NCBI GenBank assembly: GCA_030639305.1
Contig: DAOWCY010000002.1
Coordinates: forward strand, 14,974 to 78,973
Origin: Candidatus Aminicenantes bacterium
GTDB lineage: Bacteria > Acidobacteriota > Aminicenantia > UBA2199
Direction: 5' to 3'
DNA length: 64,000 bases
Part shown: positions 12,693 to 63,945 of the stretch, piece after piece
Layout of the letters: each line of letters starts with the position of its first letter
Position numbering within the stretch: position 1 is the first letter of the stretch
Notes under the pieces: model-generated
Told to the model about the DNA's origin: nothing
Seen by the model: the letters and a program-made list of their open reading frames with translations, nothing else
The model's database searches: none
Made by a program: the position numbers and the translations under genes

Positions 12693-12949
12693 AGCTATTT
12701 TTACCACGAAGGACACGAAGGGCACGAAGTCCCGTGGCACGGGAAGCCTATAAGGGGCTGCTTGTCGAACAAGGCGGCGGCCCCCGGTAGGAACCTGCAG
12801 CGCAGCTTACCAAAAGTTTTGATCAAACTTTTTTGAAGGTGCGGTGTGCCGCGGCCCCCAACTTCAATTTAATGGGGGCGTCACCCGGCAGGGACCTGCC
12901 GCGCAGCGGCTTAACGCCCCCCCACGCGAGTGGGGCCGCCGGAAGCAAG
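12693..12949. repeat. Composite intergenic repeat: module C (CCACGAAGGACACGAAGGGCACGAAG), a CCTATAAGG module and the long family-A hairpin element in reverse orientation
   Basis: Shares stretches of 20 to 100 nt with elements at 16935, 23906, 48340, 61487 and 63838. Hairpin-forming palindromes CCCCACGCGAGTGGGG and CAAAAGTTTTGATCAAACTTTT are present. Confidence 0.85.
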
Positions 12950-13127
12950 TCTTTAGCTGGGGCTGCTCTGTTCTTCTCTCGCTATAATTTGTTCTTTTCC
13001 TGTCGCAAACGGTTCGCGCTTCACAAAAAAAGGATTTTCGATGATTAACAGGAACAGTTCCGGAAATCTTATGGTGTGTCCTCTCGATCGTACAGATTGA
13101 TAAAAAACAAAAAAAATTGGGCTGTTG

Positions 13128-13156
13128 TTGACAAAACAATTAATAAATAATATATT
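13128..13156 (+). promoter_or_regulatory. Sigma70-like promoter for the vapBC-like operon
   Basis: TTGACA (13128-13133), a 17-nt spacer, then TATATT (13151-13156). GAGGT RBS and ATG at 13173 follow. Confidence 0.45.
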
Positions 13157-13172
13157 TATACTGAGGTAAAAA

Positions 13173-13382
13173 ATGAATTTTATGGTAAAAAAAGAGATTC
13201 ATGCAGCAGGCAAACTATTGGAAATCGAGATACCGCCGCACCTTTTAGGAAAGAATGTGGAAGTTATCATCAGGGAGAAAGAAACAAAAAAAGAAAAAAA
13301 CGAATTAGATGAATTTTTCTCCCGGTTTAATTACGATCTATCAGGTTTAGTTTTCGATAGAGCGGAGCTTCATGAGAGATAA
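13173..13382 (+). CDS. AbrB/MazE-fold antitoxin (VapB-like)
   Basis: 69 aa with the swapped-hairpin-like segment LLEIEIPPHLLGKNVEVIIRE. Its stop overlaps the start of the downstream PIN gene. Confidence 0.5.
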   Translation: MNFMVKKEIHAAGKLLEIEIPPHLLGKNVEVIIREKETKKEKNELDEFFSRFNYDLSGLVFDRAELHER

Positions 13383-13779
13383 AATATTTTTAGATTCGAA
13401 TGTCGTCATTTACTCCTTAGGAAGAGATGAAGTTAAAAAAAAGATTTCTGTAGATTTATTGAAAAATTATCCTACTATCAGCGCTCAGGTCGTTAATGAG
13501 GTAGTGAATGTTTCCCTTAAAAAGTTAAAGATGTCCAAGAATGAAGCTTTTGAAATCGGAAAGACCTTGATCCGGAGCTGCGAAGTTGTACCGGTAAATG
13601 ATAGGATTGTATTGAATGGATTTGAGATTTCGGAGAGATACCATCTTTCTTTTTGGGATAGTTTGATTATTTCCGCTGCTCTTGAAAATGATTGTTCAAT
13701 CATATATACCGAGGATTTACAGCATAATCAATTAATCGAAGATAGGTTATTAATCCGGGACCCTTATAAAGAAAAATAG
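13372..13779 (+). CDS. vapC: PIN-domain ribonuclease toxin (VapC-like)
   Basis: N-terminal IFLDSNVVIY with the conserved Asp, and a later WDSLI..YTEDLQH acidic cluster, fit the PIN fold. 135 aa. Overlaps the upstream antitoxin by 11 nt. Confidence 0.75.
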   Translation: MRDKIFLDSNVVIYSLGRDEVKKKISVDLLKNYPTISAQVVNEVVNVSLKKLKMSKNEAFEIGKTLIRSCEVVPVNDRIVLNGFEISERYHLSFWDSLIISAALENDCSIIYTEDLQHNQLIEDRLLIRDPYKEK

Positions 13780-13792
13780 TAGCCCCAACTAT

Positions 13793-13848
13793 CCCCTCTG
13801 GAGACTTGCCGGGAGGTGGCGCTGAGGGGCTTTTTTTGTTTTTTGCCC
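13793..13848 (+). terminator. Rho-independent terminator after vapC
   Basis: GC-rich stem CCCCTC...GAGGGGC followed by a T7 run at 13841-13848. Confidence 0.45.
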
Positions 13849-13974
13849 CGAAGCGACGGGGTGTGTTTGGCTGCGGATGCAGCACCCTTCTGTAAAATCT
13901 GTGGTCCTGTAATTTTGGTTTGTAATTTCTCCCCCGGTATGTTATATTAGGTTTTTATAGGCGGCGGAAATGGC

Positions 13975-14060
13975 GCGCCGGGACGCAGCTTAACAAAAGT
14001 TTTGCGGGGGTCCAGGGGGCAGTTTTTCAAAAGCGCCCCCTGGTCGCCGAAGGCAAGTTT
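13975..14060. repeat. Intergenic repeat copy (CAAAAGTTTTG.. / GGTCGCCGAAGGCAAG modules)
   Basis: Matches 41400-41480 and 19838-19880 (AAAAGTTTTTGGAAG..., GGTCGCCGAAGGCAA). It overlaps the annotated upstream part of the TIR ORF. Confidence 0.7.
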
Positions 14061-16934: not shown

Positions 16935-17085
16935 GGGCTATTTTTTACCACGAAGGACACGAAGGGTACGAAGGGGGACTGGCGCGCCCTACCTATAAGC
17001 CGCTTCCTTAACCTCAGCCCTTCTTGAGCTCATCCTGAGACCTCTTGAGCTCCTCCTGAGCCCTTTCTTGAGCTCCTCCTGTATC
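16935..17085. repeat. Intergenic repeat: module C plus a CCTATAAGCCGCTTCC module plus three tandem 23-bp units of CTTGAGCTCMTCCTGA
   Basis: TTTTACCACGAAGGACACGAAGGGTACGAAGG is near-identical to 12700-12730. It fills the convergent gap between the TIR-STAND gene and cutA. Confidence 0.8.
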
Positions 17086-23905: not shown

Positions 23906-24071
23906 GCCTCCGGCGGTGCGCCGCACCCAGCCTATAAGCCTCCGGCGGCGCTTCTCGCTTTTAAATTATCAAAAGTTTTGATCAAACTTTTTCAAAAGTT
24001 TGGCCCCCGGCAGGGTCCTGCCGCGCAGCGGCTTAACGCCACCCCACGCGCGTGGGGCCGCCGGAGGCAAA
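23906..24071. repeat. Intergenic repeat: GGTGCGCCGCACCCAGCCTATAAGCC module plus the long family-A element in reverse
   Basis: GCCTCCGGCGG and CCGCCGGAGGC at the two ends form terminal inverted repeats. The core is near-identical to the reverse complement of 63838-63945. Confidence 0.9.
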
Positions 24072-25333: not shown

Positions 25334-25418
25334 TTTTTACTCCGACTACAATATAATGCTTTTATTGCTTCCAGTCAACCCCAAAAAAAATTTTAAGCCT
25401 CCGGGGGCCAAACTTTTT

Positions 25419-25664
25419 TTAATTAGGTGTGCACAAGTTCTTGCCTGTTTTTTGCTCACGTTCTTTTAACAGGGCGGCAACAAGTTTACCGTTACCTGAT
25501 CCCCTGAGTCTTCGCATCGCTGCAACCGCCTGTTTCTTTTTCAATATTTCTAAGGCTGATTTGTTGTCCTCAAAAGTGACTGTTAAACGAGTTTCCGCAG
25601 GGAATTTAACGTGGCCTAACAAATCTTGAAACTCCGATAATGTTATCTTTTCAAGCGTCGGCAT
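25419..25664 (-). CDS. Hypothetical small protein
   Basis: 81-aa ORF with an ATG start. No domain recognised. Confidence 0.3.
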   Translation of the reverse strand: MPTLEKITLSEFQDLLGHVKFPAETRLTVTFEDNKSALEILKKKQAVAAMRRLRGSGNGKLVAALLKEREQKTGKNLCTPN

Positions 25665-41245: not shown

Positions 41246-41303
41246 TGCCTCCGGCGGCCCTGCCGGGGGCCAAACTTTTGAAAAAGTTTGAACAAAACTT
41301 CTG
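41246..41303 (+). repeat. Short family-A element (GCCTCCGGCGGCCCTGCCGGGGGCCAAACTTTTGAAAAAGTTTGAACAAAACTT) straight after a stop codon
   Basis: Near-identical to 49990-50050, 60472-60530 and 54229-54290. Two stable hairpins. Confidence 0.9.
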
Positions 41304-41399
41304 ATTAGCAATACGCCTGTCTACCCTGATATACGCCCACAGTTGGCTTCCTGCGATGACAGCCAACGATAGGCGCTCGAGTAACAGGAAAGCGTATCG

Positions 41400-41480
41400 C
41401 TCATTAAAAGTTTTTGGAAGTCCAGAAACCTTTTTTCAAAAAGGTTTTTGGTCGCCGAAGGCAATATTTGAGGTTTTGAA
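41400..41480. repeat. Intergenic repeat copy (AAAAGTTTTTGGAAG / GGTCGCCGAAGGCAA modules)
   Basis: Matches 13985-14060 and 19838-19880. Confidence 0.65.
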
Positions 41481-46877: not shown

Positions 46878-46960
46878 CGGTAGGGTCCTGCCTTCGGCGA
46901 CCCTGCCGCGAAGCGGCTAATTGGCCGGGGACGCCGTCCCCCTGCGAAGCGGCTAAAAGG
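46878..46960. repeat. Intergenic repeat (GGTCCTGCCTTCGGCGACCCTGCCGCGAAGCGGCTAA and GGGGACGCCGTCCCC hairpin modules)
   Basis: The modules recur at 54229-54368 and inside trmD (10900-10990). Confidence 0.75.
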
Positions 46961-46976: not shown

Positions 46977-48242
46977 TTACCGGAATTCCTTTACTACCGG
47001 GCTGCCCGGGCTGCCGCCCCGGTTGTCCCATTTTATCGTACCGCTGACTCCTTCATGCCCGGCCAAACCTTCCAGTCCCAGGCGAATTCCCGGCCGGTTC
47101 AAACCTTTCGACCGTATCGAGAGAATAATTATCCAGGCGGCATCATATGCATAGGCGGCGCTGCAAGTGGGAAACACGCCGAATCGCTTCTCAAAATCCC
47201 GGCTGAAGCGGTGATAAATCCCCCCGGTTTTCTCCCGGTCAGGCGGTTGAAAGGGTTCAATCATGTAAATAGGTCCATGGTAAACTGCTTTTAGTTTTTT
47301 TATTTCTACTCCCGGCGTCCAGGGTATACATACCGGGCAAACAATGCCGCTACTTTGAAGAGCTTTTAATAGTTTGGGAATACCGGGCACTTGCAGACAG
47401 AGTGTCAACACATGAGGCTGAAAATCCCGGATTCGTTCCGCAAGCGCTTGAAAGTCAAAGGCGCTGCCTGCGGCGGAGCCGCTTATCGCCCCCCCACGCG
47501 AGTGGGGTTGAAAATCAAGCAAACCCGGAGCCACCTCAAAATGAAATAGCGCCGGTAGGTTCCGCCGTTCCAGTTCTTTTTCCATTTCCGCGGCCGCGGC
47601 CCGGTTGTTTGGGGCTGTACAGGATACCAGCCCCACCCGGCTAAAATGCTTATTCACAATGCCCTCTTTAACCAATAACCCTGCCTGCACCCGGTCATCC
47701 GGCGGCAGGCGGAATAGCCAGGGCACCCCGGCGTGAGTTAATGAAGGCGCGGAAGAGAGAGGCGCGATTACCGGGACGTAAGCTTTTGCGGCGATCTGTT
47801 GGGCAATATGAGCGGCCCCGTCTTTGAACGCAATTATCGCCCATACCCGGTCCTCGTATATCAAGCGGATCACTTCTTTTGGGCCGGCGGCCCAGGGAGA
47901 TCCGGCCCAACGTCGAATCAGGCTAAAATCAACCCCCCGGTATCCGCCCGCGGCGTTTGCCTGTTCGATGGCCAATTTGATTCCCCGGTATAGATCACGG
48001 GCAGCCGGGTCGTCTCGATCAAAAGGGGCAAAAAGTCCGATAGCAATAGAGTTTAACGATGAAGGTTCGATTACGGCGCCTGCCGGTCCGTTAAAAGCGC
48101 GCGGGTCATCGAGCATTCGTTTGTAGGGTGCCTGGGTTTGCGCCTCGACAACCGGGACTGCGATAATAAAGCAGAGTAAAAAAATGAATCCTGCGGTAAA
48201 TAAAAAAGGGGACAGGCCGGAAAAGTTTTTACGAGCTAACAC
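46977..48242 (-). CDS. Periplasmic substrate-binding protein, LivK/branched-chain amino-acid binding family (type I PBP). Start uncertain.
   Basis: KLAIEQANAAGGYRGVDFSLIRRW and the overall alternation parallel the neighbouring paralog. The tracked start 48560 runs through repeat copies. Proposed GTG 48242 (GAGGAA RBS) or ATG 48314 both give a signal peptide ending VEA/QTQ. Confidence 0.65.
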   Translation of the reverse strand: MLARKNFSGLSPFLFTAGFIFLLCFIIAVPVVEAQTQAPYKRMLDDPRAFNGPAGAVIEPSSLNSIAIGLFAPFDRDDPAARDLYRGIKLAIEQANAAGGYRGVDFSLIRRWAGSPWAAGPKEVIRLIYEDRVWAIIAFKDGAAHIAQQIAAKAYVPVIAPLSSAPSLTHAGVPWLFRLPPDDRVQAGLLVKEGIVNKHFSRVGLVSCTAPNNRAAAAEMEKELERRNLPALFHFEVAPGLLDFQPHSRGGAISGSAAGSAFDFQALAERIRDFQPHVLTLCLQVPGIPKLLKALQSSGIVCPVCIPWTPGVEIKKLKAVYHGPIYMIEPFQPPDREKTGGIYHRFSRDFEKRFGVFPTCSAAYAYDAAWIIILSIRSKGLNRPGIRLGLEGLAGHEGVSGTIKWDNRGGSPGSPVVKEFR

Positions 48243-48645
48243 ACCCCGGTTCCTCGTTCCTCGGAACCACCTCCCGGCAAGTCTCGAAGAGGGGGATTTT
48301 GGTTTCTCGATCATCAAAAGCCTGTCTCTTTTGTTGCTTTGCTTTTTTCTTCGTGCCCTTCGTGTACTTCGTGGTTTATGCTTTTGCTTTTTCTCTGTGT
48401 GCTCTGTGGCTATATTAATTTCAAAGTAGGCCGGAAATGTTAAAAAAGGGGACAGGCCGGAAAGGTGCGGCGCACCCAGCCTATAAGGGGGTGTTACCTT
48501 CGCTTTTCTTGAATCATGAGTAAAAAAGGGGACAGGCCGGAAATGTTTTTCGTTTTTCATTTTTTTTCTTTTTTCTTCTTGCCCTTCTTTCCCTTCGTGG
48601 TAAAAAATAAAAAAGGGAACAGGCCGGAAAAGGCCGGAAAGGACC
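48195..48645. repeat. Cluster of four copies of the family-B unit AAAAAAGGGGACAGGCCGGAAA interleaved with the module-C reverse complement (TTCGTGCCCTTCGTGTACTTCGTGG) and module E (GGTGCGGCGCACCCAGCCTATAAGG)
   Basis: Copies at about 48203, 48438, 48522 and 48612, irregularly spaced (235, 84 and 90 nt). The first copy lies inside the signal-peptide region of the SBP gene. Confidence 0.8.
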
Positions 48646-48648
48646 GGT

Positions 48649-49977
48649 TTACCGGTTCAGCGCCTCTTCTTTCGTGTAGAAAACCCAACGGCGATTCTCT
48701 AAAACCGCCAGCGCCGCCGGGCTGATATTATTGAAAACCGCATCGAATTCTTTTTTGCCGGTAACACCGTTATAATGTTTCATCTTTGCCAATTCATCGC
48801 GAATCCTGGCCCGGTTGAGACCTGCCTTTTCGATTGCTTTTATTAACATGCGCATACCGTCGTAGGCATGGGCGGCGTAGGTTTCCGGGTTTTCACCGAA
48901 ACGCTTATAAAAAAGGCGCTTGAACTCTAGGTACCGCGGATCGCTGCCGGCCGGGTTATAGGGATAACCGGCTGCCACCTTGCCGATATTCTCTCCCGCG
49001 TTTTTTATGAACTCCGGGGAGACCATCCTGTCGCTGCCGATAAACCACTGGTTCATGCCCATGGCCCGCATCTGTTTTAAAATGAGGGCGGATTCGGCGG
49101 CATTACCATAGGTGATGACAGCTTCGGGATTAAGGCTTTTGATGCGCCGCAGTTGGAGGGTAAAGTCCGTATCTCCCACCGGGTAATTAAGCTCCGTTAG
49201 GAAAGGATGCCCCGATCTTGTGGCCGCATCCCTGAACTCATCGATGCTGATACGCCCATAACGATTATTGGCTCGCAGGGCGGCTACCCTGGTTAGCTTA
49301 AGCTTTTTAAAAACAAAATCCGCTAATAAGTAACACATTTGCCGGTCATCGGTGATAACACGAAAAACCCAGGGTATGCCGGTTTCGGTAAAAGTGGGAT
49401 CGGTATCGCCGCTGTTCATCATTGGGATTTCCACTTTCAAGGCTACCCGGATGGCTATGTGGCTGTTGGCGCCGTCGATGGTGCCGAGAATAGCCCATAC
49501 GTTCTCTTTGTAGGCCAGGTGGATGATTTCATTGCCGCTGGCGCCCCACAGCCCGTTATCGTTGCGCACGACCAACCGGTAGGGAATTTTCCGGCGGCCA
49601 TAGCCTCCCGCGGCATTGGCTTGTTCAACGGCAAGCTTTGCCCCTTGCAGCATCTTACGCCCTAAGCTCTCCTCATGAGACACCCCCCCGGTGGCTACCG
49701 ATACCGTGGGTTCGATAGGCCCTAAGAATCCTATTTTTACGAAATCCACCTGTTCCGGTTCAGGGATTTGCCGTCCGTAGCCCCGGTACTCCAGGGGGTC
49801 AAGAAAAAATTGCTTGTAAGGTTTCGTAAACTTTCCAAAAGGAACATACCGGTCGGGGGTTTTACCATAACTGCCGGTTTCTTTCTTTTTTTCGTCTTTT
49901 TGGGCGTTCTCCTGCGCGGTCATAGTCAAACCAACTGCCAGGAAAACCAACAATAATAAATAAATATTTTTTTTCAT
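48649..49977 (-). CDS. Periplasmic substrate-binding protein, LivK/branched-chain amino-acid binding family
   Basis: Start moved to ATG 49977 (MKKNIYLLLLVFLAVGLTMTAQ). AKLAVEQANAAGGYGRRKIPYRLVVRNDN is typical of the Leu/Ile/Val-binding family. 442 aa. Confidence 0.8.
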   Translation of the reverse strand: MKKNIYLLLLVFLAVGLTMTAQENAQKDEKKKETGSYGKTPDRYVPFGKFTKPYKQFFLDPLEYRGYGRQIPEPEQVDFVKIGFLGPIEPTVSVATGGVSHEESLGRKMLQGAKLAVEQANAAGGYGRRKIPYRLVVRNDNGLWGASGNEIIHLAYKENVWAILGTIDGANSHIAIRVALKVEIPMMNSGDTDPTFTETGIPWVFRVITDDRQMCYLLADFVFKKLKLTRVAALRANNRYGRISIDEFRDAATRSGHPFLTELNYPVGDTDFTLQLRRIKSLNPEAVITYGNAAESALILKQMRAMGMNQWFIGSDRMVSPEFIKNAGENIGKVAAGYPYNPAGSDPRYLEFKRLFYKRFGENPETYAAHAYDGMRMLIKAIEKAGLNRARIRDELAKMKHYNGVTGKKEFDAVFNNISPAALAVLENRRWVFYTKEEALNR

Positions 49978-49989: not shown

Positions 49990-50050
49990 TTGCCTCCGGC
50001 GGCCCTGCCGGGGGCCAAACTTTTGTAAAAGTTTGATCAAAACTTCTGTT
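49990..50050 (+). repeat. Short family-A element
   Basis: GCCTCCGGCGGCCCTGCCGGGGGCCAAACTTTTGTAAAAGTTTGATCAAAACTTC. It overlaps the tracked upstream part of ORF 48649-50040. Confidence 0.9.
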
Positions 50051-51287: not shown

Positions 51288-51348
51288 TAAACAAAAGTTT
51301 TGTTCAAACTTTTTCAAAAGTTTGGCCCCCGGCAGGGCCGCCGGAGGT
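51288..51348 (-). repeat. Short family-A element, reverse orientation
   Basis: CAAAAGTTTTGTTCAAACTTTTTCAAAAGTTTGGCCCCCGGCAGGGCCGCCGGAGG. Confidence 0.9.
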
Positions 51349-51350
51349 AT

Positions 51351-54228: not shown

Positions 54229-54368
54229 TTACCTTCGGCGACCCTGCCGGGGGCCAAACTTTTGTAAAAGTTTGATCAAAACTTTTTATAATTTGAAAGC
54301 GAGAAGCGCTCACGCACTGCCCTGCCGCGAAGCGGCTCATAGCCCCCCCACGCGAGTGGGGTAATTTC
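54229..54368. repeat. Composite family-A repeat (short core plus a GCGAAGCGGCTCATAGCCCCCCCACGCGAGTGGGG tail)
   Basis: Between the start of the cytochrome gene and the end of the RM methyltransferase gene. It generates the spurious ORF 54206-54406. Confidence 0.85.
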
Positions 54369-54406
54369 ATTCGTTTCCGGGTGAGGCTGTCCCCCAAAAA
54401 TCCCAT

Positions 54407-56026: not shown

Positions 56027-59000
56027 AAATCTCTTCTATTAATGGGATCAGTTTATCATCGTCTCCCAAATCGAATAATTCTTCTAATTTTTGATCGAGA
56101 GTGCGCTTTAGTTCCGCAAATTGCCGCTCAAGTTTTATTAAAACTCTCTTGTTCTCTCTGCTGCCGTCGATTTCAGATTGCTTTTTTATCATTTTTTCCT
56201 GGAGCCCCGTTATTTTATCATGCAGTTTCTTCTCCTGCGGATTGGAAAAATTTATTTTTCTTATGGGCAGCCTGTTTAGAACTTTCGTTCCCCTGGCAAT
56301 ATACCCGCTTCGAAAAACTTCCCCGATAAGAGAAGAATACCACTCCAGGTATTTTGAGTTTAACAGGGCCTGGATATAAAATAAGGAATATTTAATGCCG
56401 GGAGGCAGCGTGATCCCGCAGTAACCGGCAGTGCCGCCGGATGAGATAAAAGTACGCTGAAAATCCACCGCATATTTATTCCCCAACGAATTCACTCCGA
56501 TAACGATCTTTTCCGTCCAATCCCAGCGGTCGAGGTTCTGGCTTCTCCCGAATTTATACCAATCACCTGTTTTTATCGGGGGGCTGACGTCTCTTTTCAA
56601 AAGCCGGGTTTTAAAATGAGTAAAATATTTGTATGTTTCTTTATATCTATGCTTAAGTTCGCTTTCGGGTATTACTTCCACGCTTGCCCCCGTTTTTTTG
56701 TATGGAAATATAACCAGGGAGTTCGGTTCCAGCAGCCGGTATGTGTTTAAGCGGTTTTCGTTCTTCCCGGACGGTGTTCTATAATAGGGGCGGGTTATCT
56801 CTTTTTCTACTTTCCAGGACAACCCTCCGTTTTCAAAATAGATATAGTCCCCGTCCATCCTTTGTGGAGTAATGATATATATCGAATTCATACTGGTTTG
56901 GATCCCATTGAATACATTGCTTTTCCCCAGGAGTTCAATTAGGGGAATGCTAAGGTTATCGATTCTATCATATGCCTTTTTTAAATAAGGCGGAACGAAT
57001 AGCCAGGCTTCATCATCGAGCTTTGAAATCGGGTATGTTTCAAAACTGTTACTTTTAAAGCCGCCGACCTTCCATTCAGATAGTTTTCTTACCTCGTAAA
57101 AATCACAGGCATTATTTTGAGTTTTAGTTAATATTAATAAACATGTATATGTGGTTCTACTCTTAAACAGTTGCCTGGCTCCAAATGAAATTATCCTTTT
57201 CAGACTGCCGGTACTCGACAGCAAATGTCTCAATTTTTTCCCGGCGCCGACTTTATAAAATTTATTAGGGACGATAAAGCCCAGATAGCCATTTTGGGTA
57301 AGTAGAGAAAGCCCTTTTTCTATAAACAGGAAATATTTATCGAATTGTTTGTGTGCGGATTTATACAATTTTTTATATAGATGAGGGTGTTCTAAGGGAG
57401 TAATCCTTTTCATGTCGTCAGATTTCATATATGGTGGGTTGCCGACAATTACATCATACTTGTTATTTTTAAAATCGAAAGGATTAATGTCCTTTTTGTC
57501 TTTTTCATCAAGTTCAGCTATATCGGCAGGGCAAATCAATGAATTTCCATATTCGATGTTATTCGATAAATTCGACAAAACCGGGAGTTGTTTTCCTATG
57601 GTGACATTATCTTCATTCTCGAGAAGTTTGAGGAGCAGTCCGAACCGGGATGCTTCTACTGCGTTGTAATCTTTATCTACACCATAAATGCAATTCGATA
57701 GGATTTCCCTTTTTAGATTGAAAGGAAGTTTAAAGGTATCGATGTTTGTTCGGATTAACGTTGAACTGTCCGTATTTAAATAGTAATCGATTAATAAGTC
57801 ATTTAACAATTGAAAACTTTCCAATAAAAACGCCCCTGAACCGCAGGCAATATCACAAACTTTTATTTTTAATATCTCCCTACCTGTTTTTCCTGCGCAG
57901 AATGAAGTAATCGACTGTCTTAAAATTTCGTGGATAATATATGTAGGCGTTGTTATGATAGCTTTGTCGATATTTTCCGGTTTTTTCTCGAGAAAAACAA
58001 AATCACCTTTGACAACCAATTTTTCAGAAAGATAAATTTCATAGATATTTCCCAGGATATCGGAAGAAAAAACTGAGAAAGAATAATAACTCTCCGGGTA
58101 ATAGAGTTCTCCTATGATTTCCCAAAATGCCGATCCTAAATTGCCGACCACCTTATTCGATAAAGGAAGGTTAAATAAGCCGGCATTATATTTTTTGTCC
58201 GCTTCTTTGAATTTTTCAATTAACGATTCAAAACCTCTATCCTTTGCAAACTTCAATAATGTTTCCTTTTCTTCTAAATTTCTGTCCTCGCAAACTCTTA
58301 AGAAAATAATACTGTTTAAATAATCCTGGACATAGTCATTTAAAAGTGCTTCCGATATAACAGGCAAATGTTTTAAAATTTCCCTGCCTAACAATAATCG
58401 CCATTCATTGAAATCATTCAAGAATAAGTCGTCTATACTGAAAAGTTTTATTTTATCCTCTATGCCTTGCCATACCCGGTCAAAATTACCGCTGTAAACC
58501 GACTCTCTGCCCATATATTGCTGCAATTCTGCAAATCTTTCTTCATATTCCGTATAGTGAAACACATTTATCCGTGCTTTACGGTAATTATCATCATCTT
58601 CTAAAGGTATCGAACAATCATAGATAATTAAATATTCAAAATTTGAGAGGAGCGAAACCTTTAATTTCCCGGTAAATCCATATCTTCTTATTTGTTTGGC
58701 GGCATCATCGCTCTTCTCGATTAAAATGGCCGGTTTTTTCGCTTCCAGGAAAAACTTTCTTTCGGAAAACAAACGAAACGTGTAGTCGGGTTTTTTTGTG
58801 TGCTCCGAAATGTTGACTTTTAGAGGTTCCTCAAGGATTACTTCCCTCTCATAAGTCGGCATCCTATTCCTATTTTTGATGTCCCACCCTAAAAGCTCAA
58901 ATAGAGGATCAAGGAAATCGTTCCTGAGCTGCATCTCGTTATAATTTGTAGAACGGTAGTGCCCCCGTTCTTTTTCATATTTATCCACGAGATATTTAAT

Positions 59001-59027
59001 GTTCATAACAGCCACTTGAAAACTCAA
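56013..59027 (-). CDS. Type IIG/IIL restriction-modification fusion enzyme (N-terminal PD-ExK nuclease, gamma-class N6A methyltransferase, TRD), Eco57I/MmeI-like
   Basis: N-terminal nuclease motif KPDYTF...FLEAKKP (PD-(D/E)xK). MTase motif I VCDIACGSGAFLLESF and motif IV VIVGNPPYMKSDD. A C-terminal specificity domain of about 400 aa. 1004 aa. Confidence 0.8.
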   Translation of the reverse strand: MSFQVAVMNIKYLVDKYEKERGHYRSTNYNEMQLRNDFLDPLFELLGWDIKNRNRMPTYEREVILEEPLKVNISEHTKKPDYTFRLFSERKFFLEAKKPAILIEKSDDAAKQIRRYGFTGKLKVSLLSNFEYLIIYDCSIPLEDDDNYRKARINVFHYTEYEERFAELQQYMGRESVYSGNFDRVWQGIEDKIKLFSIDDLFLNDFNEWRLLLGREILKHLPVISEALLNDYVQDYLNSIIFLRVCEDRNLEEKETLLKFAKDRGFESLIEKFKEADKKYNAGLFNLPLSNKVVGNLGSAFWEIIGELYYPESYYSFSVFSSDILGNIYEIYLSEKLVVKGDFVFLEKKPENIDKAIITTPTYIIHEILRQSITSFCAGKTGREILKIKVCDIACGSGAFLLESFQLLNDLLIDYYLNTDSSTLIRTNIDTFKLPFNLKREILSNCIYGVDKDYNAVEASRFGLLLKLLENEDNVTIGKQLPVLSNLSNNIEYGNSLICPADIAELDEKDKKDINPFDFKNNKYDVIVGNPPYMKSDDMKRITPLEHPHLYKKLYKSAHKQFDKYFLFIEKGLSLLTQNGYLGFIVPNKFYKVGAGKKLRHLLSSTGSLKRIISFGARQLFKSRTTYTCLLILTKTQNNACDFYEVRKLSEWKVGGFKSNSFETYPISKLDDEAWLFVPPYLKKAYDRIDNLSIPLIELLGKSNVFNGIQTSMNSIYIITPQRMDGDYIYFENGGLSWKVEKEITRPYYRTPSGKNENRLNTYRLLEPNSLVIFPYKKTGASVEVIPESELKHRYKETYKYFTHFKTRLLKRDVSPPIKTGDWYKFGRSQNLDRWDWTEKIVIGVNSLGNKYAVDFQRTFISSGGTAGYCGITLPPGIKYSLFYIQALLNSKYLEWYSSLIGEVFRSGYIARGTKVLNRLPIRKINFSNPQEKKLHDKITGLQEKMIKKQSEIDGSRENKRVLIKLERQFAELKRTLDQKLEELFDLGDDDKLIPLIEEIYETN

Positions 59028-59164
59028 ATTTTGTCATACTATTATATACCATTCTTACCGTTTTTAGTCAAAAACAAATTCAACCGTTAACCCCGGTTAA
59101 ATTATAATACTCCCGGTAAGACAAATAACGGCATACCCCGGTAACTTTTTATTTTTTTGGATTT

Positions 59165-59340
59165 TTAGGGGACAGGCTGGAATGCCACTACCATGGAATT
59201 ACTTTTTGCCTCCGGCGGGGGTGCGGCGCACCCACCCTCTTAGCCTCCGGCGGCCCTGCCGGGTGACGCCCCCATTGAGTTTTTCGTCGGGGGCCAGCGG
59301 CATACCGCCCCTCCGAAAAAGTTTGAACAAACCTTTTTTT
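59165..59340. repeat. Composite repeat: family-B2 unit (GGGGACAGGCTGGAATGCCACT) plus module E plus a family-A variant
   Basis: GGTGCGGCGCACCCACCCTCTTAGCCTCCGGCGGCCCTGCCGGGTGACGCCCCCATTGA is near-identical to part of 61487-61628. Confidence 0.85.
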
Positions 59341-59423
59341 ATTGTCGAAACGAAAATCTTCAAATTGGAGTTGAATTTTACCGGAAAGTATGCTATTTCA
59401 ATAGTGGTGAAAGAGGTTAAATA

Positions 59424-59621
59424 ATGAGTGAAATAATCGATCCAATTATCGTGGAAGTGCGAAAAGCGCGGGAAGCCTATGCGAAAAAATTTAAATATGA
59501 CGTTAAAGCGATGTGTCTCGATCTGAAAAAAAGGCAAGCCCAAAATCCGGGAAGAATCACTTCGCTTCCCCCAAAAAGAATAAAAACTACGGGACCTGCC
59601 ACTCCTACTTTAGCAAAATAA
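59424..59621 (+). CDS. Hypothetical small protein
   Basis: 65-aa ORF with a strong RBS (AAGAGGTTAAATA-ATG). Charged and helical. No motif recognised. Confidence 0.35.
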   Translation: MSEIIDPIIVEVRKAREAYAKKFKYDVKAMCLDLKKRQAQNPGRITSLPPKRIKTTGPATPTLAK

Positions 59622-59629
59622 CAAACCTT

Positions 59630-59792
59630 TGGGACTTTTAGGGGGACTTTTAGGGGACAGGCTGGAGAACCTTCCCCAAAAGAGGCTTGCGTTTATTGAC
59701 TCTCCGGCCCGGGTCTCTCATAGGTTGGGGCGCCGCCCCCTTTTTGGTTCCGGCTTGACCGGGTTGTGGACAGGCTGGAATGCCACTATCCT
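59630..59792. repeat. Repeat cluster: two family-B2 units plus a family-D fragment (GGGTCTCTCATAGGTTGGGGCGCCGCCCCC)
   Basis: TAGGGGACAGGCTGGA at about 59662 and GGACAGGCTGGAATGCCACT at about 59770. The D fragment matches 25790-25830. Confidence 0.75.
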
Positions 59793-59842
59793 TTTTGTTT
59801 GAAAAATTTTATCTTTCTATAGCCCGGAAGCCGGCAAAGGGG

Positions 59843-59871
59843 TTGACAAAGCCTTTTTTTTATATTATTAA
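59843..59871 (+). promoter_or_regulatory. Sigma70-like promoter for the MNT gene (near-leaderless)
   Basis: TTGACA (59843-59848), 17 nt, then TATTAA (59866-59871). ATG at 59881. Confidence 0.35.
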
Positions 59872-59880
59872 TTAAGTACG

Positions 59881-60198
59881 ATGAACGATAAAGAAATGTT
59901 GAAAGAGCTGCGCAAGCTGCTGACAGACACTTTCCCGGGGCAAATCGAAAAAATAATCCTATTCGGCTCCAGGGCTTATGGAAAGGCGGCAAACGACTCC
60001 GATTATGATGTGCTGATCGTTCTAAAATCAGGTTATAATTGGCGTTTAAAACAATCCATCCAGGAAACCTGCTGGGAAATCGATTATAAATACGATATAT
60101 TGACAGACGTTAAAATAATCTCCGCGGCTGAATTACAAACCATCCGGGGCAAACAGCCCTATATCACGACGGCACTGCAAGATGGGATTGCCCTATGA
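59881..60198 (+). CDS. Nucleotidyltransferase (MNT-type antitoxin-like), second copy
   Basis: ILFGSRAYGKAANDSDYDVLIVL is the GSx(n)DxD nucleotidyltransferase motif. 105 aa. Confidence 0.75.
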   Translation: MNDKEMLKELRKLLTDTFPGQIEKIILFGSRAYGKAANDSDYDVLIVLKSGYNWRLKQSIQETCWEIDYKYDILTDVKIISAAELQTIRGKQPYITTALQDGIAL

Positions 60199-60257
60199 CG
60201 TTAAACCCGGCAGAACGCAAGCAACTGATACGTTATAATATCGAGAAATTAATATAA
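60195..60257 (+). pseudogene. Possible remnant of the cognate HepT-like gene (20 codons, truncated)
   Basis: A short ORF MTLNPAERKQLIRYNIEKLI overlaps the MNT stop by 4 nt (ATGA), as expected for a coupled HepT. It terminates after 20 codons just before a repeat cluster. Confidence 0.2.
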
Positions 60258-60327
60258 TAAGCTTTGATCAACGACAAATAAAACGTAAGTGAATCACCAG
60301 GAATTTCCAAATCTTTCTACCGGTGGG

Positions 60328-60643
60328 CTTTTAGGGGACAGGCTGGAATGCCACTAGGCCGCGAAACGGGCAAAATCCAAATTACAAATCACAAACGCCA
60401 AATCTCAAACAATGGCCTGCTGAGGCTAAAATTATACACCAAAAAAAGAAGAAAGGCAAAAACGATCTTGCCTCCGGCGGCCCTGCCGGGGGCCAAACTT
60501 TTGAAAAAGTTTGATCAAAACTTTTGTTTATTTAAAATCAAAGGCGCTCACCCGCTGTCTCTTGCGGCGAAGCCGCTTATCGCCTCCCCGTGCGCACGGG
60601 GTTTAGAATCAAAAGCGCTCACCCGCTGCCCGTGCGCACGGGG
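60328..60643. repeat. Composite repeat: family-B2 unit, short family-A element and two CGCTCACCCGCTG..CGTGCGCACGGGG hairpin modules
   Basis: GCCTCCGGCGGCCCTGCCGGGGGCCAAACTTTTGAAAAAGTTTGATCAAAACTTTTG at 60472-60528. The tracked ORF 60348-60725 is an artefact of this region. Confidence 0.85.
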
Positions 60644-61486: not shown

Positions 61487-61628
61487 TTGCCTCCGGCGGC
61501 CCCACGCGCGTGGGGTGGCGTTAAGCCGCTGCGCGGCAGGTCCCTGCCGGGTGACGCCCCCATTGAACCGTCGTTGGGGGCCGCGGCACACCGCACCTTC
61601 AAAAAAGTTTGAACAAAACTTTTGTTTA
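61487..61628 (+). repeat. Long family-A element variant, inserted between the two permease paralogs
   Basis: GCCTCCGGCGGCCCCACGCGCGTGGGGTGGCGTTAAGCCGCTGCGCGGCAGGTCCCTGCCGGGTGACGCCCCCATTGAACCG...AAAAAAGTTTGAACAAAACTTTTG. It generates the spurious ORFs 61332-61673 and 61417-61602. Confidence 0.9.
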
Positions 61629-61654
61629 TCCAGCATTTTTCGGTTGAAACTGCA

Positions 61655-62407
61655 CTACGCCAAAACCATATAAGTTACACTGACTGCGGTAAGCAGCAGT
61701 AACGGCGGCAGCGCCCGGGAAAGAAACTTCTTACGGTGATAGGTCATCCCTCGTAAATCGAATTTTTTGTACACCAAAGCAAAAGCCGCCCCCAAAATTC
61801 CCGCGGCGATAATAGCTCCGAAAAGAAAACTGACCCCATGCAAATAATGATAGGTTTCAAATTTTATGGAAAAGGATTCAAGCAGGGTTTTAATCCCCAG
61901 GGAAACCAGGATCGTCAACAGCAGGGGCAGCAAACCGATGATTATCCGTAAACTTTTCCAGTCGAACAGGCTGATGGCAAAACTCACCGCCAGGAAATAG
62001 AACACCCAGGCAGGAAAAAAAACCGGGTCGAAAATAGCAAAACCGCCGATTTGGAAAGATTCGGTGTTAAAGACAGGCATGAGATAAATAGAGGCCAACA
62101 CTTCGTAGACTATGGTTAAAACAATCAAAACCATCGCCCTGGGCGCAAATTTATAAAGGAATATGCGCCCTTTGGACAGCGGGAAAGAGAGTAGGTACTC
62201 GAAAGAGTTATCTTTGTATTCGCACTTAAAAGCATTCAGGCCGAAATTATTGGCAATCCAGAATATAATGTAAGGCAGGAAAATCACGAAGTAACCGCCT
62301 TTTAGGGGAGCGCCGGTGCCTGCCCAGAGAATCAGCAGCAGCATCAGCAGGGTGCTTAACCGCAGCAGGGCGGGCAAAATAATTTCCTTTAGTTCTTTTT
62401 TTAGCAT
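61655..62407 (-). CDS. ABC-2-type/YtrC-like membrane permease (paralog B)
   Basis: Start moved to ATG 62407 (MLKKELKEI), preceded by GGAG, 10 nt after the ATPase stop. 6 TM helices. Confidence 0.6.
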   Translation of the reverse strand: MLKKELKEIILPALLRLSTLLMLLLILWAGTGAPLKGGYFVIFLPYIIFWIANNFGLNAFKCEYKDNSFEYLLSFPLSKGRIFLYKFAPRAMVLIVLTIVYEVLASIYLMPVFNTESFQIGGFAIFDPVFFPAWVFYFLAVSFAISLFDWKSLRIIIGLLPLLLTILVSLGIKTLLESFSIKFETYHYLHGVSFLFGAIIAAGILGAAFALVYKKFDLRGMTYHRKKFLSRALPPLLLLTAVSVTYMVLA

Positions 62408-62417
62408 TTTCTTCTCC

Positions 62418-63242
62418 TCAGGAGTATTCACCTTCGATAAAAGCGGTCACGATTTCGGTCAGGTTTAAATCCACCACCTGGCCGTTCACCAGTTCCTTGT
62501 ACTCTTCTAAAAAAGGATAGATAAAAAATTCCGGGGAATCGATAGGGCCGCTGCGGGTAATTACCGGCAGTCCTTCCGGCAAATTCGAGGTGATCACTTT
62601 TTTTACTTTTCCTTTTAGTGAGTCGATCTCTTCGTCCACGGCGATTGTGCCGTCTTTCAGCAGGATGACCCGGTCTATCATATGTTCGATGTCGTGGAAA
62701 TTCAGGTTCATCATAATTATTGTCAGGCTGCGTTCCGAGAGCAGTTTTATCAACTGTTCTAAGAACACTTTGCGCAGGTAAGCGTCGATGGAGTGGATGA
62801 TCTCGTCGATCAACAAGATTTCCGGTTTAGCCGAGAGGATCAAACTCAAGTGCAGGATCGTGCGCTGCCCGAGAGAAAGTTCTTTGATTTTTTGGGTATA
62901 TTTGATTTTGGTATGTTTGATTAGCGAATCGTCGAATTCCTTCACTTCGTAAACCGATTTGTGCAGGTCGATGCCCTGGGCCACGGTCAAGCTTTCGTAC
63001 ATGCTCAGTTTATCGGAAATGAAACCGATTTTCCGTTTCGGGTTCGGCCCGAGTTTTTCATCGAAAAGAATGCTGCCGCCGTCGGGTGCCAGCACCCCGG
63101 CGATTAAGCGCAGCAGCGTGCTTTTCCCTACCCCGTTGATGCCCGTCATCAGGCAGGATTGTCCTTCAGGCACAAACAGGTTGAAATCCTCATACACCTT
63201 AAATTTGTCGTAACTGAAAGATAAATTCTTAATGTTTATCAT
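62418..63242 (-). CDS. ABC transporter ATP-binding protein
   Basis: Walker A GINGVGKSTLLRLIAG. Signature-like ELSLGQRT. Walker B ILLIDEIIHSID. 274 aa. Confidence 0.85.
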   Translation of the reverse strand: MINIKNLSFSYDKFKVYEDFNLFVPEGQSCLMTGINGVGKSTLLRLIAGVLAPDGGSILFDEKLGPNPKRKIGFISDKLSMYESLTVAQGIDLHKSVYEVKEFDDSLIKHTKIKYTQKIKELSLGQRTILHLSLILSAKPEILLIDEIIHSIDAYLRKVFLEQLIKLLSERSLTIIMMNLNFHDIEHMIDRVILLKDGTIAVDEEIDSLKGKVKKVITSNLPEGLPVITRSGPIDSPEFFIYPFLEEYKELVNGQVVDLNLTEIVTAFIEGEYS

Positions 63243-63260
63243 TTTTTTCTCCTATTGCCG

Positions 63261-63683
63261 TTATTTTTCTCTTTTTTTTGTTTTTCCGGCCATATTTTCG
63301 CTGTCCATGCTTTGAAGCTCGGCTATCATATCTGCCAGGGAGTAGCCTAAATCCATGGCTTTGGACACATAGTCCCGGGTTACTTTTTTAAACAGTTCTT
63401 GTTTCTCTTTCTGGATTTTGCGATGATCCACTTTGACGAAGTAGCCGGTGCCCGGTTTGGAAAAGATGAAACCTTCCACCTCCAACTGGTAGTATACTTT
63501 AGCGATAGTATTGGGATGGATTTTCAACCGGGCAGCCAGTTCGCGGATAGACATCACCTGGTCGCCTTGTTCTAAGTAGCCGGAAATAACAGCCAGTTTC
63601 ACGCCTTGTTTGACCTGTTCGTAGACAGGCACCGCGGATTTGGCCTCAACCGTAAAATGTAAAATTTTTATTTCTTTTTTCAT
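63261..63683 (-). CDS. GntR-family transcriptional regulator (short YtrA-like)
   Basis: wHTH segment MSIRELAARLKIHPNTIAKVYYQLEVEGFIFSKPGTGYFV. 140 aa. First gene of the regulator-ATPase-permease operon. Confidence 0.85.
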   Translation of the reverse strand: MKKEIKILHFTVEAKSAVPVYEQVKQGVKLAVISGYLEQGDQVMSIRELAARLKIHPNTIAKVYYQLEVEGFIFSKPGTGYFVKVDHRKIQKEKQELFKKVTRDYVSKAMDLGYSLADMIAELQSMDSENMAGKTKKREK

Positions 63684-63699
63684 TACTCTTTGTTTTTTA

Positions 63700-63760
63700 T
63701 ACCCTGCCCACGCCGTGGGCCCGCGCAGCGGCTCATAGGGTGCACGCGCCGCGTGCTTTC
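63700..63760. repeat. Repeat fragment (CCCACGCCGTGGG hairpin plus GCGCAGCGGCTCATAGGGTGCACGCGCCGCGTGC)
   Basis: Shares the GCGGCTCATAG module with 54335-54350. Confidence 0.55.
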
Positions 63761-63837
63761 TTTTTCATTTTACCGTAACACTATTATGTTACAGTGTTAC
63801 GGTTTTGTCAACTAAAAAAAATTTTTTTTTTGTTTTC

Positions 63838-63945
63838 TTGCCTCCGGCGGCCCCACGCGCGTGGGGTGGCGTTAAGCCGCTGCGCGGCAGGTCCCTGCCG
63901 GGGGCCAAACTTTTGAAAAAGTTTGAACAAAACTTTTGATTAAGC
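63838..63945 (+). repeat. Long family-A element (reference copy, about 105 bp)
   Basis: TTGCCTCCGGCGGCCCCACGCGCGTGGGGTGGCGTTAAGCCGCTGCGCGGCAGGTCCCTGCCGGGGGCCAAACTTTTGAAAAAGTTTGAACAAAACTTTTG. It has four consecutive perfect or near-perfect hairpins and is the reverse complement of 23966-24071. Confidence 0.9.

Follow-up and report, generated by a model that had tools for sequence, protein, structure and literature searches.

The window, by which we mean the whole stretch of 64,000 nucleotides analyzed here, belongs to a metagenome-assembled genome of Candidatus Aminicenantes, an uncultured sediment bacterium. Repeats make up 6.5 to 7% of its bases and, based on a listing of intergenic regions, are found in about 19 of about 30 of them. 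They are absent from two large stretches, 1 to 6 kb and 28 to 35 kb, and the statement of the first-pass annotation that they occupy almost every intergenic region was too strong. Their abundance, in contrast, was confirmed and is far above chance: GCCTCCGGCGG occurs 11 times versus 0.08 expected occurrences, and a 32-nt AT-rich core occurs seven times versus none expected. The density of perfect GC hairpins is 9.8 per kb inside repeat zones and 1.5 per kb outside. Of the 21 positions originally listed, 16 coincided with a repeat segment found by self-BLAST or lay no more than about 45 nt from one; none was returned for 6525, 13975, 19838, 25380, and 27003. As had been proposed, the repeats corrupt open reading frame (ORF) calling, with 17 to 21 spurious ORFs of at least 40 amino acids lying within repeat zones. 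The modules B, C, and E and the GC hairpins were all recovered. Rather than one family, however, the intergenic repeats represent several related module families, the A element, E-units, B, and C, which are few in number and reshuffled between sites. We found no published description of them.

The A element is approximately 60 nt long and consists of two stacked hairpins, GCCTCCGGCGGCCCTGCCGGGGGC followed by CAAACTTTTGAAAAAGTTTG. The first is an invariant GC hairpin with GCCTCCGGCGG as its outer arm, the second is of the form CAAAC...GTTTG, and an AT-rich tail follows. Seven strong copies, three variants, and one degenerate copy are present in the window. A covariance model recovered the strong copies at E values of 5e-10 or less and the degenerate copy, in which hairpin 1 has collapsed, at 25396..25442 on the forward strand (E = 3e-4); it matched the variants at 59246, 61575, and 12811 weakly. 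The short form at 41246..41305 (forward strand, 77.5 bits) begins right behind the stop codon of the gene at 37841-41245 and comprises hairpin 1 (GCCUCCGGCG/UGCCGGGGGC), hairpin 2 (CAAACUUU/AAAGUUUG), and the tail. Further short forms lie at 49991..50050 (forward strand, 74.3 bits), 51290..51350 (reverse strand, 76.9 bits, right behind the stop codon of a cytochrome/propeller gene), 54230..54289 (forward strand, also a covariance model match, upstream of the start of a cytochrome gene), and 60469..60530 (forward strand, 78.1 bits, followed by two E-units). The one at 49991..50050 separates the Reg_prop stop from the PBP1 start, is reversed relative to the minus-strand operon, and places its CCGCCGGAGGC end 13 nt ahead of the start codon.

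In the long form, at 63840..63942 on the forward strand, an E-unit (CCCCACGCGCGTGGGG-TGGCGTTAAGCC-GCTGCGCGGC) is nested within the loop of hairpin 1, as evidenced by independent occurrences of the same unit at 47467, 54310, and 60563. The short form had been described as a deletion of the long one; the relationship is the reverse, the short form being basic and the long form being the short form plus an E-unit. A second long form with a nested E-unit, at 23956..24070 on the reverse strand, adjoins a forward E-unit and left arm (23906-23948), so that the composite carries inverted GCCTCCGGCGG / CCGCCGGAGGC termini. Such inverted termini, noted in the first-pass annotation, do exist, but only at a minority of copies. 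A nested E-unit combined with a Y variant of the second half (GGGTGACGCCCCC...GGGGGCCGCGGCACACCGC) is found at 61489..61629 on the forward strand and at 12807..12949 on the reverse strand, the latter within a composite of C, E, and A modules that starts at 12693, just past the FTCD stop codon. At 59205..59343 on the forward strand, an E-unit (59205-59242) is fused to a Y-variant A element (59243-59343). An A2-type element (AAAAGTTTTTGG..TCCAG..TTTTTTCAAAAAGG..TGGTCGCCGAAGGC) occupies 41400..41470 on the reverse strand.

E-units, of which the window holds about 20, are double-hairpin units of approximately 50 nt, built from a GC hairpin, a YTAWRAGCC tag, and a second small hairpin, whereas B and C are short motifs. 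A C module followed by an E-unit lies right behind a stop codon at 12693..12760 (forward strand), and the same pair recurs at 16935-16995. On the reverse strand, the E-unit at 54310..54374 is flanked by an imperfect direct repeat (TGAAATTA / TCAAATTA), as is the first of two E-units at 60540..60643 (TTTTGATTCTAAA / CTTTGATTTTAAA); those downstream of PBP2 (46895..46960) show a GGGGACGCCGTCCCC hairpin and repeated TTAGCCGCTTCGCGGCAGG, and the one at 63700..63760 sits between the promoter and the start codon of a GntR-family gene. Across 59150..59800, B modules of the GGGGACAGGCTGGAATGCCACT type at 59158, 59643, and 59756, with another at 60324, and an E-unit at 59690-59740 surround a small gene at 59426-59623. 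An array of about 420 to 470 nt at 48190..48660 on the reverse strand lies between PBP1 and PBP2 and contains B (TTTCCGGCCTGTCCCCTTTTTTA, four copies), C (ACCACGAAG.ACACGAAGGGCACGAAG), and E modules. The two genes overlap in relatives, and the PBP2 start codon is now likely inside one of the B modules.

Comparison of the orthologous cytochrome/Reg_prop/PBP1/PBP2 operon, using relatives whose protein identity for the queried Reg_prop gene is 85%, shows that the window repeats are insertions. Junctions that measure 17 nt or overlap in the relatives hold 92, 84, and about 420 nt of repeats in the window, and the junction carrying the A element at 51290..51350 is empty in relatives L175, L176, and L178. 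The repeats are not strictly extragenic either, since two genes contain in-frame copies. In the periplasmic-binding-protein gene PBP2, an E-unit at 47467..47518 (reverse strand) is part of a 60-nt in-frame insert that is missing from the ortholog. It adds 20 residues, seen as an alignment gap of 21 columns opposite one ortholog residue, and is flanked by an imperfect 9- to 12-bp duplication (CTTGATTTTCAA / TTTGACTTTCAA) of the empty-site sequence AGTGACTTTCAA. In trmD (10300..10960, forward strand), judged against the usual TrmD length, a tandem pair of E-like units at 10305-10480 appears to be an internal insertion, and two further units at 10886-10958 encode the current C terminus. The converse case was also observed: in relatives, Reg_prop contains an in-frame A2 element at a site where the window has none. 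The A2 type is additionally present at orthologous junctions of relatives.

Independent assemblies end inside the repeats, which counts for a high copy number in the genome. Six of seven contigs with the neighboring HSP20 gene end inside the 23906-24070 composite, contigs of the same population end at the A element at 12807..12949, and the collinearity of contig L001 with the window stops exactly at the boundary of the A element at 54230..54289. Repeats do break assemblies, and that synteny break could mark a chimera. Nevertheless, the same junctions occur in independent assemblies (L001, L076, and L179) and isolates with complete sequences (D. limicola and Rms149) carry the core, leaving an assembly or binning artefact a negligible probability. 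No presence/absence differences between strains were seen in the Aminicenantes population itself.

The first-pass annotation named confinement of the repeats to the window as an outcome that would refute the mobile or REP-like reading; they are clearly not confined to it. A nearly identical A core was detected in Desulfoluna and Desulforapulum (Desulfobacterota), in other Acidobacteriota, in IncP-6 plasmids, and in a few predicted viral contigs. An exact 22-mer of the core occurs in at least 73 stretches from genomes of the two phyla, an exact 30-mer in the broad-host-range IncP-6 plasmids, and a 25-mer in five IMG/VR contigs; 121 plasmids match the query over 24 to 30 nt. From this near-identity we infer that the core has spread horizontally and that hairpin 1 is recognized in a sequence-specific manner. 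Alternatively, the invariant hairpin and AT-rich palindrome might be a conserved chromosomal protein site (IHF-like, gyrase, or similar), kept for chromosome organization as proposed for BIMEs. The extreme conservation of the core next to diverging modules would fit such a site, as would the AT-rich near-palindrome GTTTGATCAAAC and matches, read by eye on both strands, to the IHF consensus ATCAANNNNTT. However, these matches are partial, and the IncP-6 and IMG/VR versions retain hairpin 1 while their AT-rich part is replaced. We regard this explanation as very unlikely.

In Desulfoluna, the A core forms the left part of true MITEs with 13-nt inverted termini, and the A2 type forms their right end. 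Four of six elements show perfect 8-bp target duplications, and one is nested in the tail of another A element. D. limicola carries an element where the orthologous site of D. butyratoxydans has none. The first-pass annotation had suggested a link to a REP-associated tyrosine transposase, and one was found in these core-sharing Desulfobacterota only: Desulfoluna encodes a single-copy, syntenic Y1 transposase, whose best NCBIfam match is the REP-associated tyrosine transposase and which is flanked by inverted copies of A-core-associated hairpin modules. The core was absent beside the enzyme at 80 of its more distant relatives. No transposase of any kind was present in the window or in the readable contigs of its population.

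The flanking direct repeats in the window are imperfect and alike between independent copies, all being of the TTGAYTYTMAA type. Target preference or microhomology-mediated copying, instead of staggered cuts, could explain them. Recombination or template switching at short homologies might even account for the spread as a whole, with no dedicated transposase. The left repeat of the PBP2 insert resembles a donor/target hybrid, the units have no inverted termini, synteny breaks exactly at an element edge in contig L001, and one element has opposite orientations at the same junctions of two Desulfoluna genomes. Such a mechanism leaves the transfer to other phyla and the invariance of hairpin 1 unexplained, and the perfect duplications and inverted termini of Desulfoluna are a transposition signature. 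We therefore regard it as improbable.

A primary role at the RNA level, with copying being secondary, was also considered. The repeats would then act as 3' untranslated region hairpins that end or stabilize transcripts, or as hairpins that, at the junctions of operons, mask or supply ribosome-binding sites. In Desulfobacterota, 43 of the 82 copies analyzed have their GCCTCC end behind a stop codon on the same strand (33 of them within 50 nt) and 23 have it next to a divergent start, which hints at selection for such a role. Of 265 terminal motifs, 126 are no more than 45 nt away from a stop codon, and the GGAGG contained in the reverse terminus CCGCCGGAGGC is positioned 5 nt ahead of the start codon at three orthologous junctions. 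The short A form folds with a z score of -3.9, and the strand with G-U pairs folds better than its complement (-26.9 versus -22.4 kcal/mol). Compensatory substitutions, for which a search had been advised, were seen in one A hairpin, the other being invariant in sequence: pairing of hairpin 2 is preserved through three double substitutions, from AAAC/GTTT to TGCC/GGCA, and through a change from T-A to G-C. On the other hand, copies can point with or against transcription and are also found ahead of promoters and within coding regions, and a start codon at ribosome-binding distance follows only 25 of the 265 reverse termini. The repeats fail to match intrinsic terminators, terminator-like sites are no more frequent than expected (29 observed, 29 expected), and no Rfam family matches. 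Function alone also leaves the 30-nt identity across phyla unexplained. A primary RNA role thus appears unlikely; a structured RNA or protein-binding site, the alternative offered earlier, is conceivable.

With a probability of about 0.65, the repeats form a mosaic of mobile DNA elements that are small and non-autonomous, fold into hairpins, resemble REPs, BIMEs, and MITEs, and have spread horizontally. Repeated insertion at the borders of genes, into the loops and tails of other units, and sometimes in frame within genes has given rise to composite clusters and left imperfect direct repeats of 8 to 12 bp. Movement would need an enzyme encoded elsewhere in the genome. Most copies may persist because gene 3' ends and operon junctions tolerate them, and some appear to have been co-opted, for example to supply a ribosome-binding site (GGAGG) or a start codon or to extend a signal peptide, possibly also as 3' hairpins on mRNA. 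The mobile, REP/BIME-like reading proposed initially is partly supported: filled versus empty sites, nesting, target duplications, and assembly breaks fit it, but the absence of tags and, at most copies, of inverted termini does not. E-units and solo A elements carry no terminal inverted repeats and therefore do not fit DDE-type MITEs. The target duplications, in turn, do not fit the known Y1 mechanism (IS200/IS605 and REP), and the Y1 link comes from another phylum; all of these points count against this reading.

In behavior, the repeats are closest to REP/BIME clusters, MITEs, and Rickettsia palindromic elements (RPEs). Like the REPs and BIMEs of Enterobacteria and Pseudomonas (REPINs), which are mobilized by RAYT tyrosine transposases, they are short, GC-rich imperfect palindromes of high copy number, found mostly just after genes; modules and linker motifs form mosaic clusters in both orientations, and core-sharing Desulfoluna has the REP-type transposase with inverted modules around it. 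Unlike them, they lack the GTAG or CGTC tag (present in 2 of 44 hairpins), nest in each other's loops, insert with 8- to 12-bp direct repeats, and have no RAYT in the window or readable population contigs. Their core is also nearly identical across phyla, whereas REP families are, to our knowledge, lineage-specific. With MITEs (Correia/NEMIS, ERIC, RUP, Nezha, and others) they share a non-autonomous, structured, intergenic nature, a size of 50 to 250 nt, and the ability to donate expression signals; some window composites end in GCCTCCGGCGG / CCGCCGGAGGC, and in the related Desulfoluna elements inverted termini are accompanied by 8-bp target duplications. Inverted termini are lacking, however, in all E-units and in most of the window copies. 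The repeats have no known parent insertion sequence, and GTAACTATTCAGC, with which the Desulfoluna MITEs end on the outside, does not occur in the window. The modular build recalls the BOX elements of Streptococcus pneumoniae, in which a few boxes vary in number and order and strong folding is predicted. BOX elements are unrelated in sequence and host, and keep a fixed A-B-C order in contrast to the nesting and both orientations seen here. The final comparison is with RPEs and the CGTC-tagged REPs of Di Nocera et al. (2013, PMC3733652). The window units are shorter, have no CGTC tag, and are mostly intergenic; as in RPEs, in-frame palindromes add peptide segments to proteins, here to PBP2 and TrmD and in relatives to Reg_prop.

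Comparison of the window with itself and with other genomes confirmed a dense mosaic of mobile-type hairpin repeats, as in the mobile, REP/BIME-like reading of the first-pass annotation. Three housekeeping proteins, matched exactly, assign the window to a metagenome-assembled genome with the name Candidatus Aminicenantes bacterium (GCA_023135565.1 and related ENA/Logan assemblies). The sequence GCCTCCGGCGG was present in 11 copies (0.08 expected) and an AT-rich 32-nt core in 7 copies (0 expected). Of 21 copy positions listed earlier, 16 had a repeat segment in the self-comparison, either at the position or within about 45 nt; 6525, 13975, 19838, 25380, and 27003 had none. A covariance model for the A element, a repeat of about 60 nt with two hairpins, was built from copies of several taxa. 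It recovered seven strong copies in the window (41.8 to 78.1 bits), together with one degenerate copy (25396) and weak matches to three variant copies. Repeat zones sum to approximately 4.2 to 4.5 kb, or 6.5 to 7% of the window. Perfect GC hairpins were 6.5-fold denser in the 4.5 kb of repeat zones (44 hairpins, 9.8 per kb) than elsewhere (1.5 per kb). Mosaic composites were found at 12693-12949, 23906-24070, 48190-48660, 59150-59345, and 60320-60643. The description of repeats in almost every intergenic region proved too strong, because a reading of the intergenic listing placed them in only about 19 of about 30, whereas the claim that they corrupt ORF calling was upheld by 17 to 21 ORFs of at least 40 amino acids located inside repeat zones.

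The short form of the A element (TGCCTCCGGCGGCCCTGCCGGGGGCCAAACTTTTGAAAAAGTTTGATCAAAACTTTTG) folds, as RNA or single-stranded DNA, into two directly stacked hairpins. Its folding energy is -26.9 kcal/mol (z = -3.9) for the given strand and -22.4 kcal/mol (z = -2.6) for the opposite strand, a difference that is due to G-U pairs. E-units are about 50 nt long and consist of a 5- to 6-bp GC hairpin of variable sequence, the tag YTAWRAGCC, a small GCSGC-NNN-GCSGC hairpin, and AGG. In the long A form, the hairpin 1 loop holds one E-unit, which is also found solo at 47467, 54310, and 60563. Since the nested unit exists alone elsewhere, the long form represents an insertion, which reverses the original view of the short form as a deletion of central hairpins. 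In the Y variant of A, the first arm of hairpin 2 is replaced. Module B is GGGGACAGGCYGGAA, and module C comprises three CACGAAG repeats. The C+E+A composite at 12693-12949 has a similar counterpart in an Acidobacteriota metagenome-assembled genome (L059), with an identical A core and diverged flanking modules. At positions 1300-1500 of L059, C-like repeats (CGCGAAACACGCGAAACACACGAAAAAG) form the inverted termini of a complete composite, about 190 nt long, and lie on either side of an E-like hairpin and an A core. Because this composite ends in C-like sequence, C modules may be termini of larger elements. Separately, a hairpin at 48245-48275 (GGTTCC-GAGGAACGA-GGAACC) shares its 9-nt loop with a hairpin module that is abundant in Desulfoluna (about 100 copies in the loci retrieved), with different stem letters; this likeness could be due to chance, since the hairpin is single copy in the window.

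Evidence for insertion was obtained from an operon of minus-strand genes (54212-46977), which encodes a cytochrome c554/propeller protein, Reg_prop, and two periplasmic binding proteins. An equivalent operon is present in L175 to L177 (85% identity for the queried Reg_prop protein) and in a second relative, L178. Its junctions in these relatives are 17 nt long or overlapping (ATGA), and the orthologous junctions in the window are filled with 92, 84, and approximately 420 nt of repeats. No repeat lies in the first junction of the three relatives that are readable at this point. Two further junctions of the relatives hold a different hairpin module, of the A2 type, ending in CCGCCGGAGGC 5 nt before the start codon, and the GGAGG of this terminus can act as a ribosome-binding site there. 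These cases show that repeat insertion can separate operon genes which overlap or are spaced by 17 nt in relatives, with the operons apparently still working.

Repeats also entered coding sequences. The gene for the second binding protein, PBP2, contains an in-frame insert of 60 nt that is exactly one E-unit. The insert lies between CTTGATTTTCAA and TTTGACTTTCAA, and the ortholog reads AGTGACTTTCAA only once at this site. Two further E-units have similar imperfect flanking repeats. Imperfect direct repeats of 8 to 12 bp thus occur at three window units, one of which was confirmed against an empty site. The likely start codon of PBP2 and its signal-peptide extension are now within a B module. 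In the relatives, Reg_prop carries an in-frame A2 element after the signal peptide, and none is present at the equivalent position in the window. TrmD (10081-11013; 310 amino acids) is interrupted by about 65 extra amino acids, which are composed of two tandem repeats of about 35 amino acids. At the DNA level these correspond to 10321-10366 and 10426-10471, E-like units within trmD, and two E-units encode the C-terminal tail. The protein may be functional despite its repeat-derived segments. An apparent length polymorphism of trmD in contig L079 was dropped because it reflected scaffold Ns. Homologs of Reg_prop with 64 to 90% protein identity bear the names of Syntrophobacter, Omnitrophota, Desulfobacterales, Calditrichia, and Fidelibacterota, a spread which suggests that this gene, and perhaps the whole operon, has been transferred between phyla. 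In addition to producing about 20 false ORFs in 64 kb, the repeats lengthen or alter real genes at start codons, C termini, and internal loops, so annotation pipelines need repeat masking.

Independent assemblies of the population stop inside repeats; contigs do so in four of five cases after FTCD and in six of seven after HSP20. One contig of the population, L001, matches 64000-54232 of the window with 99.99% identity and then diverges exactly at the left boundary of the 54230 A copy (position 15411 of L001), continuing into a different gene for an LRR/Roc-COR protein. This break at an A element reflects either a rearrangement mediated by the repeat or a chimeric assembly. Repeats fragment metagenome assemblies of Aminicenantes, with contigs stopping inside copies.

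Several other features of the window were recorded. Genes for defence or addiction cluster near repeats, among them two pairs (antitoxin/PIN and nucleotidyltransferase/HepT), another nucleotidyltransferase whose partner is truncated, and a pair of MmeI-like restriction-modification genes (13173-13779, 19973-20683, 59426-60260, and 54407-59027). Two tandem paralogs (33800-35473 and 35950-37554), one with a Peptidase_S74 (endosialidase chaperone) domain, are 73 to 87% identical at the DNA level along most of their length; the pair is a gene duplication and not a member of the repeat family. A separate family of three copies of about 65 to 80 nt, AAACAAACTTTTGGTCA...CCCAGGCCCCTCATAGG plus a GC hairpin, is located at 25739-25803, 35739-35823, and 37843-37927. 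Two copies are at gene 5' ends (ispG/gcpE and a 1,134-amino-acid TPR/FG-GAP gene) and the third is intergenic, between paralogous Peptidase_S74 genes; the family may represent a leader or a further module type. A perfect 41-nt tandem duplication (ATATTGGGGTCAAGTCTTGTTTTGCAACATTTGAATAA...; 18468-18550) is located in an AT-rich stretch upstream of an MFS transporter gene.

The position of repeats relative to genes was evaluated for a role in expression. Among 82 copies in Desulfobacterota, the GCCTCC end is 3' of a same-strand stop codon in 43, at a distance of 50 nt or less in 33 of these, and it adjoins a divergent gene start in 23. Terminal motifs were within 45 nt of a stop codon in 126 of 265 cases; only 25 of the 265 were before a start codon at ribosome-binding distance, and donation of a ribosome-binding site was rejected as the main role of the terminus on this count. 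All arrangements are represented among the ten A copies of the window, which follow stops, precede starts, lie upstream of a promoter, or fall between convergent genes. Terminator-like sites between 44.1 and 64 kb numbered 29 (29.0 expected), and only a few repeat hairpins matched loosely. Window genes have GGAGG ribosome-binding sites and TTGACA/TATAAT promoters of the Shine-Dalgarno and sigma-70 types. A Bacteroidetes origin, to which large TonB-like ORFs had pointed, was rejected on account of these signals and subsequently of protein names. The A copies are not canonical terminators or promoters, and given their varied arrangement, RNA-level roles are regarded as secondary and copy specific. 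No Rfam family reached its gathering score anywhere in the window, repeats between 59.1 and 64 kb had no Rfam match at an E value of 10 or less, and a tRNA search of the window was negative. Integron attC, dif/Xer, and parS sites were discarded from sequence alone, as core motifs mismatch and copies are dispersed in both orientations.

The A core is distributed far beyond the window. At least 73 stretches from species-representative genomes contain an exact 22-mer, CCTGCCGGGGGCCAAACTTTTG. Hosts include Desulfoluna limicola (complete genome, many copies), D. spongiiphila, D. butyratoxydans, other Desulfobacterales, Desulforapulum, a Deferrimicrobium metagenome-assembled genome (MAG), two Acidobacteriota MAGs, and another Aminicenantes MAG. 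The conserved IncP-6 plasmid backbone carries a 30-nt exact match, and 121 plasmids (Rms149 and relatives) match the query over 24 to 30 nt. The plasmid copy is single, directly 3' of a small ORF downstream of rep, and its hairpin 2 reads CAAAC-GGTCGC-GTTTG. Hairpin 1, unannotated there, is at 2501-2527 in Rms149 (L171; one mismatch in 27 nt) and at 1876-1905 in pFAHZU31-KPC (L172; exact over 30 nt). Other window modules were not found in the plasmid search, nor was any window module apart from the A core found outside Acidobacteriota. E. coli chromosomes gave no match, and phages gave a chance-level match only. In IMG/VR, neither the 22-mer nor the E-unit had an exact match and a 25-mer of hairpin 1 was in only five contigs; a viral origin was rejected on these grounds.

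These copies were informative with regard to compensatory substitutions, for which the first-pass annotation had proposed a check. Hairpin 2 is TGCC-TTTTGAAAA-GGCA in two IMG/VR contigs instead of AAAC-TTTTGAAAA-GTTT, amounting to three compensatory double changes with loop and tail unchanged, and in one Desulfoluna copy a T-A pair has been replaced by G-C with pairing retained. Compensation was confined to hairpin 2, and hairpin 1 was invariant; the former is thus kept in structure and the latter in sequence. Since small repeats are generally lineage specific, it is unusual for an element of 25 to 60 nt to be nearly identical, almost letter for letter, in Acidobacteriota, Desulfobacterota, and the IncP-6 plasmids of Gammaproteobacteria.

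Complete elements in Desulfoluna are 134 to 260 nt long, with the A core as left part, an A2-type right part, and outer inverted termini GTAACTATTCAGC. Four of six have a perfect 8-bp target duplication, and one sits within another A element's tail. Species differ at orthologous sites in both presence and orientation of elements. In the window, inverted GCCTCCGGCGG and CCGCCGGAGGC frame the composite at 23906-24070, and they likewise frame elements of L188 and L178. Terminal inverted repeats are lacking from solo A elements and from E-units.

A link to a REP-associated tyrosine transposase, as first proposed, was borne out in part. A Desulfoluna locus encodes a 201-amino-acid Y1 transposase (Pfam Y1_Tnp, 25.5 bits), whose best NCBIfam match is the REP-associated tyrosine transposase (E = 4.6e-11, under that model's cutoff). 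Its orthologs in D. limicola and D. spongiiphila are single copy and syntenic, and on both sides they have inverted copies of the hairpin module usually seen with the A core. This is the classical REP-RAYT layout. The hairpin GGCGGATG...CATCCGC may be an alternative to hairpin 1 as a candidate site for this transposase (P0008). The link stands for hairpin modules associated with A in Desulfoluna, but neither the window nor the readable contigs of its population encode a transposase. A general association of the A core with the Y1 clade was rejected, as neither the core nor GCCTCCGGCGG was present at 80 metagenomic loci that encode more distant relatives (34 to 45% identity). No Aminicenantes member was among the best 120 matches in a profile search of the clade, and no autonomous insertion sequence with matching termini was seen in approximately 520 kb of Desulfobacterota loci. 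Being cultured and having a candidate transposase, Desulfoluna is tractable for asking what recognizes the hairpins and how phyla are crossed.

A dense mosaic of mobile-type hairpin repeats is ordinary in kind. Three traits are unusual: the near-identical core across phyla and broad-host-range plasmids, loop nesting with in-frame entry, and target duplications without inverted termini. We hypothesize, with a probability of roughly one in five, that the invariant hairpin GCCUCCGGCGGCCCUGCCGGGGGC and its covarying partner form the recognition site of an undescribed trans-acting mobilization or processing system, common to distant phyla and perhaps carried by broad-host-range plasmids. In this reading, E-units, with 9- to 12-bp duplications, no inverted termini, loop nesting, and in-frame entry, may move by neither a DDE nor a known Y1 mechanism.

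Searches on sequence strings, on RAYT/REPIN in these taxa, and on Aminicenantes repeats retrieved no published description of the family; the genome paper of Desulfobacterium autotrophicum HRM2 counted a record number of repeats, which were left uncharacterized. Like REP elements, the window repeats contain short GC-rich palindromes of 20 to 40 bp in many copies. The GTAG and CGTC superfamilies of REP have a tetranucleotide tag at the palindrome end (PMC3733652), whereas GTAG, CTAC, CGTC, or GACG was within 6 nt of the stem in only 2 of 44 window hairpins, and the recurring tag here is YTAWRAGCC. As in BIMEs, palindromic units and linker motifs alternate in orientation outside genes, although some copies are intragenic. 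With regard to MITEs, inverted termini are present in some window composites only, and window duplications are imperfect. The REP/REPIN-RAYT arrangement of a single-copy cognate RAYT flanked by repeats is seen in Desulfoluna for the associated hairpin modules. In their behavior, the window repeats resemble REP/BIME, MITEs, BOX, and RPE elements.
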